A stretch of DNA of 48,315 nt, from sequence record OR466728.1, one strand, 5' to 3'. The notes under the pieces were generated by a model. The model was not told the DNA's origin, made no database searches, and worked only from the letters and a program-made list of their open reading frames with translations. The translations under genes and the position numbers were made by a program. Shown here piece by piece: positions 35,193 to 48,315 of the stretch. Each line of letters begins with the position of its first letter. The stretch's first letter is position 1. Source of the DNA: Escherichia phage ES.

Positions 35193-35444
35193 ATGTTGGG
35201 TTTAGATTTTCAGCCGGAGCATTACGATTTAGTATATGGTCAAAGTGGTGCGAAGTTTAGAGCGATACCTATTTCTGACTGGTTTCCTCCTGACTACGTG
35301 GATGTTAATGCGAAGACGAAGGATGGTAAATGGGTACAGATTTACTATTCCCCAGCGTGCGGGAATCTCTGCATGACAGACCTGGACCAGAAATTAGAAA
35401 TTAGTGCAGATTTAATTGATTACTGGTTGAAAGAGGTTGTATGA
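35193..35444 (+). CDS. hypothetical protein
   Basis: 83 aa from ATG 35193, RBS AAGGA. Confidence 0.45.
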   Translation: MLGLDFQPEHYDLVYGQSGAKFRAIPISDWFPPDYVDVNAKTKDGKWVQIYYSPACGNLCMTDLDQKLEISADLIDYWLKEVV

Positions 35445-35515
35445 AGTACACAGCCCTAGTAGCATTAGTACCACTGTTTAGCTTTACTATCTTATATTTT
35501 ATTGTGATGAACTAA
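35441..35515 (+). CDS. hydrophobic micro-peptide (24 aa, putative membrane)
   Basis: MKYTALVALVPLFSFTILYFIVMN; RBS AAGAGG 5 nt upstream; ATGA overlap with upstream stop. Confidence 0.3.
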   Translation: MKYTALVALVPLFSFTILYFIVMN

Positions 35516-38047: not shown

Positions 38048-38121
38048 GCTTATAATTTGCCACCGCCTAATGTATGATATTTGCACTATGTATTGACAAA
38101 TTAGGATTTAAAGGTGATCAC

Positions 38122-38337
38122 ATGAGGGAAGTAATTAACGCCGCCACGGCATCAACCGGCGGAGCCGCTGTAACTGGTGCCGCAACTGGTCAAATGACTA
38201 TAGCAATAATCAGCCTTGTGGCTCTTGTTGTTTTCGGGCTGTGGGGAGCATATTGGAAGTTTAAGGACAGTCAGGCAATCAGGAAGGCTCTAGAGTCGGG
38301 TGATTTAAAGACAGCTATCAATATTAGGAGTAAGTAA
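38122..38337 (+). CDS. holin (putative)
   Basis: 71 aa from ATG 38122 (RBS AGGTGA); one hydrophobic TMD IAIISLVALVVFGLWGAYW and charged C-terminus; directly upstream of endolysin. Confidence 0.55.
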   Translation: MREVINAATASTGGAAVTGAATGQMTIAIISLVALVVFGLWGAYWKFKDSQAIRKALESGDLKTAINIRSK

Positions 38338-38822
38338 TGAAGCAGAAGCTGGTAATTAGTGCAGCGACGGCTGTGGCAATATACATCGCAGCGCCGATTA
38401 TTGAGCTAGTAGAAGGTGTGGAATACAAGCCTTACATGGACATTGCAGGCATTCCTACGGTTTGTTCAGGTATCACTGGTCCTGATGTGGTGTGGGGTAA
38501 AAAGTACAGTGCAAGGGAGTGCAGGAACTTACTGGAGAAACACATCCAGATTCATGGAAAGTATGTGCAGGATGCAGTAACTTACCCAATCTCTCCACAG
38601 ACAAGGGCGGCGTTAATCAGCTTTAGCTACAACGTTGGTGGCGCTGCAATGAGGAAGTCAACGGCAGTAAGGCTGATTAATCAGGGCAAGATTGAAGAGG
38701 GTTGTAATGCTCTCGCCTCCTGGAATAAAGCTCGAGTAAATGGCAAGCTAAAAGTTGTTAAAGGCCTCGTTAACAGGCGCAACGAGGAGATTAAATTATG
38801 CTTAAGTGGGGTGGGTAAATGA
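38337..38822 (+). CDS. SAR endolysin (T4-lysozyme-like)
   Basis: N-terminal weakly hydrophobic signal-anchor-release segment, then E-x8-D-x5-T catalytic triad (ELVEGVEYKPYMDIAGIPT). Confidence 0.75.
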   Translation: MKQKLVISAATAVAIYIAAPIIELVEGVEYKPYMDIAGIPTVCSGITGPDVVWGKKYSARECRNLLEKHIQIHGKYVQDAVTYPISPQTRAALISFSYNVGGAAMRKSTAVRLINQGKIEEGCNALASWNKARVNGKLKVVKGLVNRRNEEIKLCLSGVGK

Positions 38823-39205
38823 AGGCTGCGTTAATTGCTGCGGTAATTATACTTTCTGGTTGCTCGGCAACATCTGCGCTGACCGGGTTGATTGGTAGTA
38901 AGCCAGAGATTAGCGCTCAAGCAGGTGCGGAGAATAACAAGGTTGGAGTAGGGCTAACTAATAAGGTTGATTCAAGTTCCAGCGCAAAGGCTGAAGTGAA
39001 GAACTCTAAGGTTGACACTCTTGATAGTTCAAGCGGTAAAAAGACTTCTGATAACTCAATCAAGGCATCAACAATCACGGCTGAGAAGATTGAAATCACC
39101 AACAATGACTCGTCTGCAATCCCGTGGATTGGGAGTGGAATCATGTTTTGCGTCATCATCATTCTGCTCTTAATGATATTCAGGAAAAACAAAAAAGCCC
39201 CGTAA
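38819..39205 (+). CDS. unimolecular spanin (T1 gp11-like)
   Basis: N-terminal lipoprotein signal with lipobox ILSGC and C-terminal TMD GIMFCVIIILLLMIF in one 128-aa protein. Confidence 0.65.
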   Translation: MKAALIAAVIILSGCSATSALTGLIGSKPEISAQAGAENNKVGVGLTNKVDSSSSAKAEVKNSKVDTLDSSSGKKTSDNSIKASTITAEKIEITNNDSSAIPWIGSGIMFCVIIILLLMIFRKNKKAP

Positions 39206-42716: not shown

Positions 42717-42769
42717 ATCCCTCTCCTCGTTGTTGATGGATTCATTATGGCCTCGTCGCCAGTTTTTGT

Positions 42770-42787
42770 CATTAGCAAAAAGTGCTA
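42770..42787 (-). promoter_or_regulatory. dyad box copy 14 (minus strand TAGCACTTTTTGCTAATG)
   Basis: perfect TAGCA-N5-TGCTA dyad; CATAAT about 22-23 nt downstream on minus; 54 nt upstream of ATG 42716. Confidence 0.5.
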
Positions 42788-42807
42788 TTCGTTGGATTTA
42801 TCTATTG

Positions 42808-42899
42808 TTGCAGCTATTGCAATGATTATCATGATTATTGCACATATAGCAATATTGCATGGAATGCAATGATGTTTTTGATTGTTGCAGAATTTGCAA
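42808..42899. promoter_or_regulatory. array of four TTGCA-N5-TGCAA palindromic sites (operator- or iteron-like)
   Basis: sites at 42808-42822, 42838-42852 (imperfect), 42855-42869, 42885-42899; spacings 30/17/30 nt. Confidence 0.55.
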
Positions 42900-43028
42900 T
42901 GATTGATGTGGGGTGAATGAATAGTGGATGAACTACCATACAAGTTGATTTTGATTCTTGCTGAGCCAATTTGGATATACACGTTATCGAAGTTATGGTG
43001 TGTATATGAGGTGCGCTTCCGAAGAATC

Positions 43029-43121
43029 ATACACGCCTACCACGCGAGATTACGCAATGGTTACATAATAATATCTATATATATCAACCTTTTACTATAT
43101 TATTATTATTATTATATATAT
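43029..43121. repeat. control-region repeat block 1 (copy B) with (TAT)n microsatellite
   Basis: matches 22911-23000. Confidence 0.6.
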
Positions 43122-43255
43122 GTATGTATATGGTGTAGATTGGTCGTATGGATGGGTCGATAGTTTTTCTATGAAAACTACTAATTTTATCTATATAGAT
43201 ACATATGCATACCCCCGGCGAATCCGCGTAAAATCTTACACAGGGTAATTACACC

Positions 43256-43308
43256 AGCTATAGCTGGGCTGAGAGGTCAAAAAGCGTAACCAATGCAGAT
43301 ATAAACAC
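43256..43308. repeat. control-region repeat block 2 (copy B)
   Basis: matches 23144-23197 (AGCTATAGCTGGGCT...GCGTAACCAAT). Confidence 0.6.
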
Positions 43309-43388
43309 AACATAACACTTGATAACGCGTATATTCATGATACCATGGTTTCATCTTAACGAAGAGCAACCAATCAGGAGTAACGAAT

Positions 43389-43910
43389 ATGTCAGAACAT
43401 AAAGAAGCAGTAAGTTTGGGTGAAATCATTCGATACATGGCGAGTCAGGCGCTCAAGTCAGAAGACAAAGTGTGCACAGTCCCTGTGACCATGATTGCTC
43501 GTCAATACTTCGGCATGAGTCGTGAGACGTTCGTATCGCTAAGTGGTGAGGAGGTTCTACCTGGTGGTGAATACCACATGCCAAAACTAAAAGCGTCATA
43601 CGTTTCAAACACCGTAAGCCGAATGCCTGAGATTAAGGCGGCTGACGTGCGCTCAAGGTTCTCACTTAGTTTTACCGACTTTGAGGGCGAGAGTGAGACA
43701 TACTGCGCATCACTTAGCCTGGTTCCTGGCGCTGTAAAATCCGGCTCAAGAAGCAAAGCAGAGCAAGAGAAGGAGGCGGCTACCATTGAAAGGTTCAAGG
43801 CTCGATTGTTGAAACTATCACCAAGCGTCGCTGGTCTTGAAGGTGATGAACTTAAGGGTGCAGTATCAATGATTAACGCATACCAGGAAATGATTAAGGA
43901 GACTAAATAG
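43389..43910 (+). CDS. hypothetical protein (first gene of early region)
   Basis: 173-aa ORF, RBS CAGGAG. Confidence 0.5.
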   Translation: MSEHKEAVSLGEIIRYMASQALKSEDKVCTVPVTMIARQYFGMSRETFVSLSGEEVLPGGEYHMPKLKASYVSNTVSRMPEIKAADVRSRFSLSFTDFEGESETYCASLSLVPGAVKSGSRSKAEQEKEAATIERFKARLLKLSPSVAGLEGDELKGAVSMINAYQEMIKETK

Positions 43911-44011
43911 TAGGTATCCTAGTAGACTACCATACCACTTTCGGTACGGTGAGGAGGAGGTTGAGGCGGCTATGGAGTTTTATCGGAAAGCTAAGTCACT
44001 CCTGAATGGAA

Positions 44012-44029
44012 ATAGCACTTTTTGCCTAA
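44012..44029 (+). promoter_or_regulatory. dyad box copy 15 (TAGCACTTTTTGCCTAAC)
   Basis: CATAAT 22 nt downstream, CATCGAAAC; ATG of 44093 is 81 nt downstream; spacer contains ATGCCA/TGGCAT hairpin. Confidence 0.5.
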
Positions 44030-44092
44030 CGCAATAATGCCATGGATGGCATAATTATCTCATCGAAACGAGAGGCACAAAGGAAAACGAAA

Positions 44093-44281
44093 ATGGCTAA
44101 GCGCATCACTAAAGAACTTAAAGTCCTGAATAAAGAAAACGTAATCACCATCCTGACAATGTTCGGATACAACGAAGAGTCAGCGATTGCAAAGGTTGAG
44201 GCTGGTTACGATGTTGCAGTACGTAGTATGCCGGAAGCAACCTCAAAAGGTATCGCCGACTTCCTGGCTACCTGCTACTGA
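44093..44281 (+). CDS. hypothetical protein
   Basis: 62 aa from ATG 44093, RBS AAAGGAAAA. Confidence 0.45.
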   Translation: MAKRITKELKVLNKENVITILTMFGYNEESAIAKVEAGYDVAVRSMPEATSKGIADFLATCY

Positions 44282-44336
44282 GTTATCTTACAAGGCATCT
44301 CGCGGGGTGCCTCAATAAGACAACTGGAGAAACAGC

Positions 44337-44522
44337 ATGAAAACTAAAATGGTACATAAGAGCGAAGTTAAGATTGGCGATACTGTTATCCATCGTGGCT
44401 ATCTTAGAACTGTAAATGCCAACACTTTTAGTAAGGATGAGTTTATGGGACTACTTCTTTGGGGCGACTCCTACCGGCTTGGGCAGGAGATGGTTGAAGT
44501 TATAATTGATGTTAAGTTTTGA
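44337..44522 (+). CDS. hypothetical protein
   Basis: 61-aa ORF, RBS GGAGA. Confidence 0.45.
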   Translation: MKTKMVHKSEVKIGDTVIHRGYLRTVNANTFSKDEFMGLLLWGDSYRLGQEMVEVIIDVKF

Positions 44523-44523
44523 A

Positions 44524-44541
44524 TAGCACAAATTGTTAAAC
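44524..44541 (+). promoter_or_regulatory. dyad box copy 16 (TAGCACAAATTGTTAAAC)
   Basis: starts 2 nt after the TGA of 44337-44522; TATAGT 22 nt downstream; ATG of 44599 is 75 nt downstream. Confidence 0.5.
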
Positions 44542-44598
44542 CTTCCGCAAGGCCATTTGATATAGTGGCCTTATTAAAGCAAAGCAAGAGAGGGTGGG

Positions 44599-44829
44599 AT
44601 GGATAGGAACAAATATGAAAGAGAGATTACTGGGCTTAATGGCGAGCGGGCTGTTGTTGATGTGTATCGCACGCTATCAGCGTTCAACGTTACAGACCCA
44701 GCATGTCAGCATGCAATCAAAAAGCTGCTCTGCATGGGTTTACGAGGTCACAAGGATGTTATCACAGACCTTGATGACGCAATAGACTCACTGAACAAGA
44801 TGAAAACTTACCTGGAACAAACGAAATGA
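44599..44829 (+). CDS. hypothetical protein
   Basis: 76-aa ORF, RBS AGAGAGGG. Confidence 0.45.
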   Translation: MDRNKYEREITGLNGERAVVDVYRTLSAFNVTDPACQHAIKKLLCMGLRGHKDVITDLDDAIDSLNKMKTYLEQTK

Positions 44830-45059
44830 TTACAATTAACCTGTCAGAGAAAGATGCAGCAATCCTTAAATCGATCATAATGAAGCCGATGTACTCTACG
44901 CTCACCTTTGAGCAGATGCGTGTCGTAAAAGAGACTAGCGCGCAAATCAACAATCAGCAGTTCGACGTATCAGACTTCGAGTCATCTCGCCAGTACGAGC
45001 AGCTAAGCGTGCAGAATGCTGGCTACCTCACTAACTGGGATAAGGCGACAAAGAGATGA
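44826..45059 (+). CDS. hypothetical protein
   Basis: 77-aa ORF, ATGA overlap with upstream stop. Confidence 0.45.
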   Translation: MITINLSEKDAAILKSIIMKPMYSTLTFEQMRVVKETSAQINNQQFDVSDFESSRQYEQLSVQNAGYLTNWDKATKR

Positions 45060-45202
45060 TTTACATTCACACTTACTATACAGGAAAGTTTAACAGCGTT
45101 AAGCACGTGCGTGTGCATGAAACATACGAATCGGCACATAGTCAGCTTAGAGTTCTTGGTGGAACAATTACAATGTGTGAAATTGTTGAAGAATACAGAT
45201 AG
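45056..45202 (+). CDS. hypothetical small protein
   Basis: 48-aa ORF, ATGA overlap; its TAG stop is the first triplet of a dyad box. Confidence 0.35.
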   Translation: MIYIHTYYTGKFNSVKHVRVHETYESAHSQLRVLGGTITMCEIVEEYR

Positions 45203-45217
45203 CACGAATTGCTAAAC
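45200..45217 (+). promoter_or_regulatory. dyad box copy 17 (TAGCACGAATTGCTAAAC)
   Basis: CATAAT 22 nt downstream, CATCGACAAC; spacer hairpin GCCGGAGTAATCCGGC; ATG of 45275 is 75 nt downstream. Confidence 0.55.
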
Positions 45218-45274
45218 AATCGCCGGAGTAATCCGGCATAATTACTACATCGACAACGAACGAGTAAATGAAGA

Positions 45275-45487
45275 ATGAAAATTAAAATTATCGACGTGAA
45301 CCACATACCAGAAGAAGGCGTTCTGACACTTGAAGAATGCGGGTTTAAGGTTGGTGACGTATTAGAAGTAACCGGTCGGTTCGGGTGTGGTAGCTTATCA
45401 GCTCGAGAGATTCGTGATACTGAGTTAGTATCAATAGGACAGATGGTTAGTTTTGAAGAAGGCGAGTACAAGGTGGTCGAAGAATGA
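45275..45487 (+). CDS. hypothetical protein
   Basis: 70-aa ORF. Confidence 0.45.
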   Translation: MKIKIIDVNHIPEEGVLTLEECGFKVGDVLEVTGRFGCGSLSAREIRDTELVSIGQMVSFEEGEYKVVEE

Positions 45488-45663
45488 AATTCCAGAAAAG
45501 TAACCCTAAGCTCCAGGCTAACAACTTCGATGGTTACACAACATTTATCATCGCCCAGGCTTTCGGTTTGCATGATGAACCTAAGGTTCATACTATCCAC
45601 TTAAATGAAGAGCAAGCTCGAGAACTGGCTTTCGAGATTCTTGATCAATTGAATAAAATTTAA
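45484..45663 (+). CDS. hypothetical small protein
   Basis: 59-aa ORF, ATGA overlap with upstream stop. Confidence 0.35.
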   Translation: MKFQKSNPKLQANNFDGYTTFIIAQAFGLHDEPKVHTIHLNEEQARELAFEILDQLNKI

Positions 45664-45673
45664 GGTTTATAAA

Positions 45674-46096
45674 ATGAAATTAAGCAAATCTCAAAGGGAA
45701 GAGTTGAAGGGCAAGTTCGGTGGTCGCTGCGCTTATTGTGGGTGTGAACTACCTGAGAAAGGCTGGCATGCTGACCATGTTGAACCGGTGCTACGTAAAT
45801 CTGAGGTATGCATGAAGGCAGCGGAGAAAGGAACTTTCAAGCTGAAGGCGACAGGTGAGTTTAATCGACCACAAGCTGATCGAATGGAAAACCTTTACCC
45901 TGCATGTGCTCCATGCAACCTCATGAAAACTTGCTATTCCCTTGAAATGTTCAGGGAACAGGTGTCTCTTCAAGTCGCTCGCGGGCGTAAGAGCAGCATG
46001 AATTTTCGCACGGCAGAGCGGTTCGGCCTCATCTCCATAGTGGAGGATCCAGTTGTTTTCTGGTTTGAGAAGTTTGAGCAAATTAACAAAATCTGA
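45674..46096 (+). CDS. HNH endonuclease (zinc-finger HNH type)
   Basis: CAYCGC...WHADHVEPV...NLYPACAPCN motif arrangement. Confidence 0.65.
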   Translation: MKLSKSQREELKGKFGGRCAYCGCELPEKGWHADHVEPVLRKSEVCMKAAEKGTFKLKATGEFNRPQADRMENLYPACAPCNLMKTCYSLEMFREQVSLQVARGRKSSMNFRTAERFGLISIVEDPVVFWFEKFEQINKI

Positions 46097-46106
46097 GGAT
46101 AGAGAA

Positions 46107-46241
46107 ATGCATACTGGGTTAATGATGGATGAAGTTCTGGTTGAAGCATTGCCATGGTTACTCTGGTCATTGGGCTTCATGATTATTTACATGATTTCAG
46201 CAGCCGTAGATGACGCTAAAAGCGATTCTAACGAACTATAA
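46107..46241 (+). CDS. small membrane protein (putative)
   Basis: 44 aa from ATG 46107 (RBS GAGGA), hydrophobic helix ALPWLLWSLGFMIIYMISAAV. Confidence 0.35.
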   Translation: MHTGLMMDEVLVEALPWLLWSLGFMIIYMISAAVDDAKSDSNEL

Positions 46242-46259
46242 TTTAAGTGAGGTGATTGC

Positions 46260-46420
46260 ATGATTAAGATCGTATACATTGGTCAGGATGATTATATGGC
46301 GCGCTTAAAGCATGGCGACGTATTCTATGCAGAGCCTAGCGAAGATGGCAATGGGTACTTCATTAAAAACAAGCACGATGAGGAGCTTTACATAGCAAAC
46401 CACGAGGCTCTTGTTTACTA
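46260..46420 (+). CDS. hypothetical small protein
   Basis: 53-aa ORF, RBS GTGAGGTG. Confidence 0.35.
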
Positions 46421-46561
46421 ATGGATAACTACGAAACACCAAGCCAGTGGGCTAAACGGATGATGGATGAGGCTAAGACTGGCGAGGTTGCCATGATGTA
46501 CTTCGAGCTGATGAATCTATGGAAGGAGCGTGAAGATAAAATAAACAGCACGAATAGCTAA
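46421..46561 (+). CDS. hypothetical small protein (C-terminus NSTNS)
   Basis: 46-aa ORF overlapping upstream stop; its 3' end is encoded by a dyad box. Confidence 0.35.
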   Translation: MDNYETPSQWAKRMMDEAKTGEVAMMYFELMNLWKEREDKINSTNS

Positions 46562-46563
46562 AC
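46546..46563 (+). promoter_or_regulatory. dyad box copy 18 (CAGCACGAATAGCTAAAC, degenerate)
   Basis: perfect TATAAT 22 nt downstream; spacer hairpin GGCA/TGCC; ATG of 46618 is 72 nt downstream. Confidence 0.45.
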
Positions 46564-46617
46564 ACCAAAGGCATGGATGCCATATAATTTATATATCAAA
46601 CAGCGAGAGGTTAGAAA

Positions 46618-46854
46618 ATGTTCGGATTAGAAGACGCATACTTTAACGCAGTCAAGCGACAGGCTGACAAGCTGAATGAAGAGTACGGCAAGCTGGGTGT
46701 AAAGAAGAAAGATGATAAGGTTGTGGCGGCACTGATTACCCAGGTTTGGGGGCCAGTTTCGACATTAATTGCTCGTGATAAGTTTGTGTGGATTGCTGGC
46801 TATCGAAAAGGTCGAGTGGGTCATGATGAGAATGGGAATAGCCTTTATGAGTAA
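46618..46854 (+). CDS. hypothetical protein
   Basis: 78-aa ORF, RBS GAGAGG. Confidence 0.45.
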   Translation: MFGLEDAYFNAVKRQADKLNEEYGKLGVKKKDDKVVAALITQVWGPVSTLIARDKFVWIAGYRKGRVGHDENGNSLYE

Positions 46855-47098
46855 AGATTTTCAGGAATTTTTAGAAAGCATAGCGATAGGTATCTTTATT
46901 GGTTTTGTGTTCATGGCGGTCCTGACGGTGGTATGATGAGTGTACTAATCTAGTGGTGGTCTAAGTATGAATGATATTATTATTGATTTAGTGTTAACTT
47001 TGATTGCTGTTGTTCTTGCTATTGCTACAGGTGCAGGGATGCTTTTACTTGTAATGAGACTTTCTTAATGGATGTTGATAAGAACAGGAGCCATATGT

Positions 47099-47290
47099 AT
47101 GAATGAAAACGACAATAACCACAAGCATCGCTACGTTTACGTGTTCACATCAAATATTAACGATTTTGACATTAAAGCGCTAAACGACAAGTACCATGAG
47201 TCAACAAAACAAAGTCTATTTGTTGGTGAAAGCTGTTCATTCTACGAGTGCAAAGATTGTGGCAAGATGCTTATAACTGAGGAGTTTTGA
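47099..47290 (+). CDS. hypothetical Cys-containing small protein
   Basis: 63 aa from ATG 47099 (RBS AGGAG); C-x4-C-x2-C near C-terminus. Confidence 0.4.
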   Translation: MNENDNNHKHRYVYVFTSNINDFDIKALNDKYHESTKQSLFVGESCSFYECKDCGKMLITEEF

Positions 47291-47487
47291 TGAATAAAAT
47301 TATTAAGAAAGGCGATGCTATCAAGTGCACAAAGGCAGTATCGGATGACTTCATGGATGGATGCGATTACCAGGTCGAAAAGGTATCGAAGACTGGCCAC
47401 GTATTCTGCTACAGCGATAATGGCGAATTGGTGAGCATTGACTACCCGTATGACCAGAATTATGGGAAATTCGAAAGAGTAAGTTGA
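47287..47487 (+). CDS. hypothetical protein
   Basis: 66-aa ORF, ATGA overlap with upstream stop. Confidence 0.4.
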   Translation: MMNKIIKKGDAIKCTKAVSDDFMDGCDYQVEKVSKTGHVFCYSDNGELVSIDYPYDQNYGKFERVS

Positions 47488-47675
47488 CACATCTAACCCT
47501 GACTGGTACATTAACAACTGTAGACAGACGAGGCCACCAAGTGGCAACGGCGCACGGAGCGCAACACAAAGTCCATAGCTCACTAAGCAGCGTATATGGC
47601 GAAATCGGTCGAGAAACTCGACGCTGGAAGCGTAACCAGCAATCCTTCAATAGCGCAATCGCTACTCAAGGATTT

Positions 47676-47751
47676 GTTCTGCTGGCGTAACAGGATAACG
47701 CAAAGACCTCCTAAGTCTTAGTTACTGGTTCGAGTCCAGTGCGGAACACCA
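47676..47751 (+). tRNA. tRNA-Arg (anticodon CCT)
   Basis: hand-folded cloverleaf: 7-bp acceptor GTTCTGC/GCGGAAC, D-arm GCGT/ACGC with GG loop, anticodon loop CTCCTAA, T-arm ACTGG-TTCGAGT-CCAGT, discriminator A, encoded CCA. Confidence 0.8.
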
Positions 47752-47782
47752 AATTAAGAAACCAATAATCCTGGGGGATTAA

Positions 47783-47995
47783 ATGAAAAAAGTAACAATC
47801 ATCGTAAAAGATATTGAAAGCGGCACTTCCCAAAAATTCAACGCAACACTTGACCGTGAACATAAATGCTTAAAGGGTGTGATTGGCGGGGTTTCAGTTA
47901 GCGCGGATATTAAAGGTTATCTCGAGCTTGAAAGAGAAATTCAAAACTATAGCAATCAGAGCGGGAAGATAAAAAATGCAGCTCTGGGATGTTAA
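47783..47995 (+). CDS. hypothetical protein
   Basis: 70-aa ORF, RBS GGGGGA; last gene before the junction with position 1. Confidence 0.45.
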   Translation: MKKVTIIVKDIESGTSQKFNATLDREHKCLKGVIGGVSVSADIKGYLELEREIQNYSNQSGKIKNAALGC

Positions 47996-48004
47996 GCTTT
48001 CAAT

Positions 48005-48160
48005 CTGCTTCCTCTGAGGACTTAGCAGTAACCGACGCGATAAATTCTTGAGTGCAACTTTTGCAACTACGACCCATTAATCGGATTGAAAGCTTAACAT
48101 CCCAGAGCTGCATTTTTTATCTTCCCGCTCTGATTGCTATAGTTTTGAATTTCTCTTTCA
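48005..48160. other. 156-nt fold-back: reverse complement of the end-to-start junction (probable assembly artefact)
   Basis: 48005-48082 is the exact reverse complement of 1-78; 48083-48160 is the reverse complement of 47929-48004 plus CC. Confidence 0.7.

Positions 48161-48315
<155 letters not shown>

Follow-up and report, generated by a model that had tools for sequence, protein, structure and literature searches.

T1-like phages are widespread laboratory and fermentation contaminants and candidates for phage therapy; roughly half of their genes lack a known function, and the signals that direct their transcription have not been explained. A 21-nucleotide (nt) direct repeat, aaATAGCACnnnTTGnTAAAA, with AAA, TTT, and GAA subtypes, has been reported for phage TLS and noted also in T1, Rtp, and Rogue1, with its function left open (PMC11447400). 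In T4-type phages, promoter/stem-loop (PeSL) cassettes lie at the breakpoints of insertions, deletions, and replacements in hyperplastic regions (PMC2839356, PMC4122927). Here we analyze a block of small genes at 43389-47487, plus strand, in a 48,315-nt stretch of Escherichia phage ES (record OR466728.1), which at its full length we call the window. The block is probably the hyperplastic accessory arm of Rtp- and Rogue1-like Drexlerviridae, set between a divergent control region and the tRNA-Arg/terminase module. It is ordinary in kind, and both this kind of region and the repeat box that punctuates it were already known; new here are the promoter geometry, a gene remnant, conserved unannotated micro-proteins, and a slot for small-gene cassettes.

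The assignment is carried by gene order and gene family. The block holds the same position in every relative examined, and the order around it is shared: divergent control region, DUF7174 gene, small genes, phrog_303 gene, tRNA-Arg, small terminase, large terminase. In the window, tRNA-Arg(CCU) is at 47676-47751, and the small terminase, an HNH gene, and the large terminase are at 283-2892. The window is a circular permutation of the record of Escherichia phage AN_ECEAS (PP944860; Drexlerviridae, Braunvirinae), to which positions 43000-48005 are 100% identical. A preliminary description, made from the letters alone, counted about 18 tightly coupled small genes here; all 18 plus-strand open reading frames (ORFs) are present, 17 as credible genes and one as a remnant. 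They fall in families common to other T1-like phages: 13 of the 18 match PHROG families, four match Pfam as well (DUF7174, DUF7421, DUF7180, HNH), and tblastn finds relatives of 15 in eight related loci or in contigs found later. The coupling is equally real, with start/stop overlaps at six of 17 junctions (ATGA at 44826, 45056, and 45484; TAATG at 46421; ATGAGTAA at 46847; TGATG at 47290; all on the plus strand). A ribosome-binding site of the AGGAG/GAGG type stands 5-10 nt before most of the starts that do not overlap; those of g08 (45275) and g16 (46967) are only weak. Opposite-strand ORFs (e.g., 45142-45600 and 45791-46180) were dismissed as shadows, the family matches sitting on plus-strand genes. 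The features of the block, with protein lengths in amino acids (aa), are:

43389 to 43910, plus strand: g01, 173 aa, DUF7174 / phrog_4841; first block gene in all relatives; rtp1 of phage Rtp
43915 to 44037, plus strand: gene remnant, last 31 codons of a deleted gene, with the 21-codon ORF 43972-44037 inside
44093 to 44281, plus strand: g03, 62 aa, DUF7421 / phrog_7717
44337 to 44522, plus strand: g04, 61 aa, phrog_3623
44599 to 44829, plus strand: g05, 76 aa, phrog_2452 and phrog_17613, matched in their C-terminal part
44826 to 45059, plus strand: g06, 77 aa, DUF7180 / phrog_16063; ATGA overlap
45056 to 45202, plus strand: g07, 48 aa, phrog_3955; ATGA overlap
45275 to 45487, plus strand: g08, 70 aa, phrog_5684
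45484 to 45663, plus strand: g09, 59 aa, phrog_7411; ATGA overlap
45674 to 46096, plus strand: g10, 140 aa, free-standing HNH endonuclease
46107 to 46241, plus strand: g11, 44 aa, single-helix micro-protein with acidic tails
46260 to 46421, plus strand: g12, 53 aa, phrog_38524
46421 to 46561, plus strand: g13, 46 aa, phrog_1312 (DUF8272 in precomputed matches); TAATG overlap
46618 to 46854, plus strand: g14, 78 aa, phrog_303 (rtp15)
46847 to 46936, plus strand: g15, 29 aa, one hydrophobic helix; 8-nt overlap of its start with the g14 stop
46967 to 47068, plus strand: g16, 33 aa, single hydrophobic helix
47099 to 47290, plus strand: g17, 63 aa, H-x-H ... C-x2-C motif, zinc-ribbon-like by eye
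47290 to 47487, plus strand: g18, 65 aa, phrog_4927; TGATG overlap

Two of these starts replace longer readings. The start of g03 is placed at 44093 (62 aa) because the family profiles begin at residue 18 of the 79-aa ORF; the 79-codon reading is unlikely because its ATG, at 44042, lies upstream of the predicted -10. For g17, the start at 47099 (63 aa, with an AGGAG site) supersedes a 72-codon reading, and the GenBank product is also 63 aa. The preliminary description was too cautious in holding that no gene here can be assigned from sequence: g10 passes the gathering score of Pfam HNH (23.0 bits, cut-off 21.4) and matches phrog_2118 (7.4e-55). It sits between g09 and g11, whose homologs in Rao1 (gp04 and gp05) are 10 nt apart, a position typical of a free-standing homing endonuclease insertion. 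The PP944860 annotation labels g10 a "DNA repair ATPase" and omits g06, g15, g16, and g17; the present analysis corrects the public-record annotation on these points (one label, four missing genes), as well as on a "u-spanin" and one spurious ORF.

That spurious ORF is the 21-codon frame at 43972-44037, which the preliminary description had counted as a gene. Read in its frame, 43915-44010 gives ...SRLPYHFRYGEEEVEAAMEFYRKAKSLLNG, and these 31 codons match the C-terminus of SU57_0002, RobRod40 CDS0067, Rao1 gp02, and an IME542 gene. The intact counterparts in SU57, RobRod40, Rao1, and IME542 are 103-174 aa long, and their stop codon is the TAG of the repeat box that follows. In the window one A is absent and the rest of the gene is gone; as a result of this 1-nt loss, the 21-codon frame runs on through the promoter box. 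By comparison with these relatives, the ORF is a frameshifted pseudogene remnant and no gene.

What, then, is the box? The preliminary description placed a dyad box before each gene group of the block. The motif TAGCA-N5-TGCTA does precede four of the five groups (44013, 44524, 45200, and 46546), while the g01 group has a canonical -35/-10 promoter instead. Nor does the box belong to the block: it is the published family-wide repeat, present here in 19 genome copies of TAGCAC-N5-GYTAAAS, all oriented with the downstream genes, and it heads the terminase, portal, and tail operons too. The four block copies match the consensus aaATAGCACnnnTTGnTAAAA and its orientation and lie 80, 75, 75, and 72 nt from the ATG they precede. 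The predicted transcription signals are:

43319 to 43346, plus strand: g01 promoter, sigma-70-like, TTGATA-16-TACCAT followed by CATCTTAACGAA
44013 to 44071, plus strand: putative promoter A, box 44013-44030, GC hairpin (6 base pairs), -10 CATAAT 44050-44055, CATCGAAACGA 44061-44071
44524 to 44582, plus strand: putative promoter B, box 44524-44541, -10 TATAGT 44561-44566 within a 9-base-pair hairpin (-12.9 kcal/mol, z -4.4)
45200 to 45258, plus strand: putative promoter C, box 45200-45217, hairpin GCCGGA/TCCGGC (z -3.7), -10 CATAAT 45237-45242, CATCGACAACGA
46546 to 46604, plus strand: putative promoter D, box 46546-46563 overlapping the g13 stop codon, -10 TATAAT 46583-46588

The -35/-10 pair before g01 is found at the same place before the g01 homolog in 10 related loci, and among the five gene groups a canonical -35 occurs only there. 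The box units follow a different plan. A hexamer matching TATAAT in at least four of six positions lies exactly 19 nt past the box in 14 of the 19 copies (background 4.9%) and in 52 of 65 copies in relatives; a conserved CATCGAAACGAA follows 5 nt past this -10-like hexamer. If the hexamer is placed at -12 to -7, the center of the dyad falls near -42. No acceptable -35 was found in the box units at 16-18 nt (the hexamer at 17-18 nt matches TTGACA in about 3-4 of six positions, and the TTGCTA of the box is 22 nt upstream), and an ordinary sigma-70 promoter was rejected on this count, the -10 being present and the -35 missing. A sigma-54 reading fails as well: the box has TAGCAC-N3-TTGC against TGGCAC-N5-TTGC, with A for the first G and a spacing 2 nt short, and a -10 follows instead. 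Spacing also rules out a T4 MotA box. A strong GC-rich hairpin stands between box and -10 in seven of the 19 pattern-matched copies, including promoters B and C; as terminators these hairpins were discarded, a scan giving three terminator-like sites against 4.0 in shuffles, with no T-run after the hairpins.

These features suggest a two-step scheme. Transcription by the host RNA polymerase would begin with g01, at the sole canonical -35/-10 promoter; the remaining four units would be read from family-specific promoters composed of aaTAGCACnnnTTGCTAAA, 19 nt, TATAAT, 5 nt, and CATCGAAACGAA. A dyad near -42 in place of a -35 is an arrangement commonly seen at activator-dependent (class II) promoters or with an upstream enhancer element. 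We infer that the boxes are promoters needing a dyad-bound activator or an upstream-element effect. The obvious, though unproven, candidate for such an activator is g01, in which a helix-turn-helix-like stretch pointed to a regulator and whose structural model may have a winged-helix-like N-terminal half and a C-terminal helical hairpin, with weak fold matches. Within each unit, overlapping start and stop codons would couple translation.

Could the boxes serve other ends, as stoperators, as signals for transcript 3'-end formation or processing, or only as recombination linkers? We hold this unlikely. Several boxes run into the stop codon of the gene before them, a stable hairpin follows seven of the 19, and mosaic breakpoints cluster at boxes; those who described the repeat brought up such readings themselves, weighing stoperator, enhancer, and UP-element roles (PMC11447400). 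Against these readings stand (i) a fixed 19-nt spacing to the TATAAT-like hexamer, both here and in the relatives; (ii) a conserved sequence at the expected start site; (iii) a constant distance of 72-80 nt from box to start codon; and (iv) an orientation that is always that of the downstream genes. Moreover, without the boxes the genome would be nearly promoterless, and only three sigma-70-like promoters are given for TLS (PMC11447400).

The mosaic breakpoints just mentioned deserve a closer look. In blastn comparisons with 17 related loci, homology ends at gene junctions and at the box cassettes: the four cassettes make up 7.6% of the block and hold 36 of the 156 ends of high-scoring segment pairs (p 2e-9), and 105 of the 156 lie inside a cassette or no more than 12 nt from a gene boundary. 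Judged by these alignments, the block is a mosaic whose gene content varies among relatives.

A second kind of junction lies behind g14. This gene is the best conserved of the block (65-96% identity) and anchors a slot: in 16 of 17 genomes, its stop and the start of the next ORF share 8 nt (ATGA[GA]T[AG]A). In 13 of the 17 genomes, the stretch from g14 to a downstream RNA element contains intact one-helix ORFs, one or two per genome, that are 21-35 aa long and exceed the hydrophobicity threshold; in a fourteenth, IME253, a 21-aa slot ORF falls just under it. The occupants belong to at least five sequence types: MSELTIWF... (21 aa), the g16 type, the EC3a/DTL/IMM-001 type, the IME542 30-mer, and g15, which takes the first slot position and has positional analogs in most relatives. 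In locus L017 a g16-type cassette sits between perfect 29-nt direct repeats 125 nt apart, and locus L019 is the exact empty site for it. Compared across these genomes, the slot is real: short, translationally coupled ORFs, mostly encoding unrelated single-helix peptides, are gained and lost in it.

Three further observations concern the occupants of this slot. One is a 21-aa ORF, MSELTIWFIAGLI(A/T)W(A/G)YFLI(V/A/G), that overlaps the stop of the phrog_303 gene, is retained in many relatives, and is absent from this phage; its changes are mostly synonymous or conservative, with a ratio of non-synonymous to synonymous substitution rates (dN/dS) of 0.07-0.7, and it is unannotated in Rtp and G8. 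Its loci are:

L009, 4528 to 4593: Rtp
L007, 5262 to 5327: G8
L004, 4750 to 4815
L014 and L015

The second is a metagenome contig, L018 (4454-4786), in which the phrog_303 gene and a g16-type peptide are joined in frame by 2 extra nt (ATGAGTGTGATATT), giving 110 aa; the fusion may be genuine or may come from faulty assembly. The third concerns g17, to which SU57_00019 is homologous (46%, tblastn). Both share with an IME253 61-mer and Rao1 gp09 an N-terminal (C/H)-x-H-x-Y and a C-terminal C-x2-C-G motif, which suggests that the g17-type proteins are one small zinc-ribbon-like family alternating with membrane peptides in the same slot; a Rao1 gp09-type product is labeled "transcriptional repressor" in IMM-001. 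The g17-type loci are:

47099 to 47290: this phage
L005, 5043 to 5225
L002, 2682 to 2918

Are the hydrophobic micro-proteins genes at all? Scored as the best 19-residue Kyte-Doolittle mean, the single hydrophobic stretches that the preliminary description had picked out are real:

46107 to 46241: 1.76 (g11)
46847 to 46936: 2.64 (g15)
46967 to 47068: 2.65 (g16)
35441 to 35515: 2.44 (outside the block)

The plus strand of the block has two strongly hydrophobic ATG-initiated ORFs against 0.05 +/- 0.22 in 500 dinucleotide shuffles. Both strands of the genome together hold 14 comparable ones, mostly within longer genes, so that the count alone is weak evidence; conservation says more. Homologs of g11 occur in Rao1 (gp05), RobRod40, MM01, and IME542 at 56-86% identity. 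For g16, which has no match in the phage collection, a 33-aa homolog, MSDIIIDLVLTLIAIGLAMATAIGMIFFIFTLN, was found in five related contigs (alignment z 10.3) by way of contigs carrying an identical g18. The dN/dS is 0.06-0.19 for g11 (proportion of synonymous differences, pS, 0.62-0.67; of non-synonymous differences, pN, 0.09-0.14) and 0.24 for g16 (pS 0.60, pN 0.24), values that come from very short sequences and few pairs, which tells against leaning on them too heavily. By this measure both genes show purifying selection. The ORF at 35441-35515 encodes a 24-aa one-helix product, MKYTALVALVPLFSFTILYFIVMN. It shares an ATGA with the stop codon before it and terminates 10 nt short of the exonuclease gene; EC3a, RobRod40, Sd1, and Rao1 all keep it intact, with synonymous changes, and none of their records annotates it. 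By these alignments at least two of the three hydrophobic ORFs of fewer than 45 codons in the block (46107 and 46967) and the 35441 ORF are conserved. All three combine a hydrophobic stretch of about 18-23 residues, a length below 50 aa, and a conserved ORF, as small single-pass membrane proteins do; g15 has the stretch only. Most micro-peptide ORFs of the preliminary description are thus genes; the 21-codon ORF is not.

The micro-proteins would insert into the inner membrane and there affect membrane integrity or target host membrane proteins, perhaps to exclude other phages or to take over the host, and the soluble small proteins of the block would act on host or defense targets. A different mode of action, in which the peptides depolarize the membrane like the TisB and Ibs toxins and shut down host energy metabolism without binding a specific partner, strikes us as doubtful. 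Their size (21-44 aa), single helix, and near lack of a soluble tail resemble those of type I toxins. In g11, acidic tails on both sides and conservation along the whole helix fit a specific partner better, and several such peptides occur within one phage.

More doubtful still is the suggestion that the hydrophobic ORFs of fewer than 45 codons are chance or non-coding spacer, T-rich DNA reading as hydrophobic, and that only ORFs of at least 46 codons are genes. It draws on the 14 comparable ORFs in the genome, mostly spurious ones inside longer genes; on g15, an orphan with a weak ribosome-binding site; on the 21-codon ORF, which is indeed no gene; and on the gene callers, which skipped g15 and g16. 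Set against this, g11, g16, and the 35441 ORF hold length and frame in diverged relatives, synonymous change in g11 and g16 far exceeds non-synonymous change, the slot after g14 has a hydrophobic micro-ORF in 13 of 17 genomes despite unrelated sequences, and the micro-ORFs occupy gaps that have no promoter box. That the one-helix peptides are lysis parts (spanin, holin, or antiholin) is hardly credible: they are membrane peptides, and the phage ES record names the 44-aa g11 product "u-spanin," a label we reject, since the lysis cassette lies elsewhere (holin 38074-38337, endolysin 38337-38822, spanin 38819-39205; phrog_1804, 1.9e-46) and g11 cannot be aligned to this spanin, has no cysteine and hence no lipobox, and matches no lysis PHROG.

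A number of results weigh against the picture of a regulated block of host-directed genes drawn above. A box that also precedes structural operons cannot mark the block as early, and the one indirect hint of early timing is the canonical promoter before g01; the idea of an activator is drawn from geometry; and the stoperator, enhancer, and UP-element roles considered for the repeat compete with it. A function could be assigned to the HNH protein g10 only, none being attached to the remaining block genes, and NCBIfam and PADLOC scans of the block gave only weak HNH-related matches. The structure-based search that the preliminary description had proposed as a check was run on models of g14 and g01: the AlphaFold2 model of g14 is a helical bundle (predicted local distance difference test score, pLDDT, 78) with no Foldseek match in the PDB (best E 4.4), and the g01 model has no significant structural neighbor. 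The literature searched holds no transcript, ribosome, or proteome data for this phage or its family, so timing, start sites, and translation are all inferred. Finally, g15 has a weak ribosome-binding site, matched only its own phage in a tblastn search of 50,697 phage records, and gave no match to degenerate DNA patterns in IMG/VR and JGI metagenomes. We still regard it as probably translated, a case that is unproven; its alignment with the IME542 30-aa peptide is not significant (z 0.9). Other searches were equally spare: sequence searches of solved structures with g01, g05, and g14 returned nothing below E 0.25, an exact-sequence look-up put g14 on no other contig on record, its relatives in IMG/VR number seven loci, and an Rfam scan of the block matched a tRNA only.

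Taken together, the slot and the boxes invite a more ambitious and distinctly tentative reading, to which we give a low probability. The slot would be a dedicated exchange point, where unrelated one-helix genes are swapped by recombination at the short conserved ATGAGTRA start/stop junction (with up to 29 nt of repeat), each translationally coupled to the preceding gene; the peptides would be fast-evolving inner-membrane effectors, used to exclude rival phages or to evade membrane-bound defenses; and the boxes would be activator-dependent promoters switched on by g01. The general claim of the preliminary description holds: a dense block of small, largely uncharacterized genes adjoins a divergent control region. 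Its interpretation was reasonable yet generic and is partly supported, the early timing and the host-takeover or anti-defense functions being putative.

The flanks of the block have features of their own. Downstream, a sigma-70-like promoter (TTGACA-17-TACATT, 47484-47512) precedes an approximately 87-nt core (47510-47600) upstream of tRNA-Arg. In all relatives this core is 78-89% conserved, more so than the genes on either side. The first hairpin of the core has compensatory changes in four pairs (covariation 0.255 against 0.091 +/- 0.014 when shuffled and about 0 when slid). Rfam has no match for the core, which probably serves as a structured leader or is transcribed together with the tRNA as a small RNA. 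The anticodon of tRNA-Arg is CCU here, in Rao1, in IMM-001, and in the closest contigs, and UCU in Rtp, G8, SU57, IME542, and others. Upstream, the 670-nt divergent intergenic region (42717-43388) contains an AT-rich, repetitive stretch (43060-43210) and, within 100 nt (42808-42899), four dyads of the form TTGCA-N5-TGCAA. The linear records of several published relatives begin within its equivalent; operators, an origin, or a packaging site may be located here. The end of the window (48006-48315) is an artifact that is absent from the AN_ECEAS record: positions 47950-48005 repeated in inverted orientation, then about 155 G.

The overall picture of such blocks is unchanged by this work. It yields a conserved, mostly unannotated set of one-helix micro-proteins; a defined slot in which small-gene cassettes are exchanged, with its junction sequence; and a precise model of the published repeat as a promoter, in which one candidate regulator is named.

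How does the locus compare with known systems? The published repeat and ours agree in consensus, in the spacer variants GAA, TTT, and AAA, in orientation, and in the distance of about 76 nt to start codons; the description of the repeat mentions no partner element (PMC11447400), whereas here a -10-like hexamer at 19 nt and CATCGAAACGAA accompany it. The boxes may be cassettes of the PeSL kind: as in T4-type phages, repeated composite motifs, here putatively regulatory, flank small variable ORFs and coincide with breakpoints. Unlike PeSL, to which they have no sequence relation, they have a hairpin between box and -10 that is strong in only seven of 19 copies, and a second junction type, the ATGAGTRA start/stop overlap with its repeat of up to 29 nt, is also used.

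The micro-proteins may be compared with small inner-membrane proteins and type I toxins of bacteria. AcrZ, MgtS, KdpF, TisB, and Ibs are 20-50 residues long, with one transmembrane helix and minimal tails, as the phage peptides are predicted to be; we found no sequence similarity between the two sets and know of no partner, antisense RNA, or toxicity of the phage peptides.

The closest relative in plan is the rtp1-rtp18 region of Rtp (AM156909): a control region, the DUF7174 gene, 10-20 small genes, the phrog_303 gene, tRNA-Arg, and the small and large terminases. Many gene families are common to this block and the Rtp- and Rogue1-like Drexlerviridae, and very small ORFs are already annotated in Rtp (rtp2, 19 aa; rtp6, 30 aa). 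Gene content differs cassette by cassette: this phage has the HNH insertion and the gene remnant, and its slot holds two one-helix ORFs, g15 and g16, where that of Rtp holds the 21-aa MSELTIWF... ORF.

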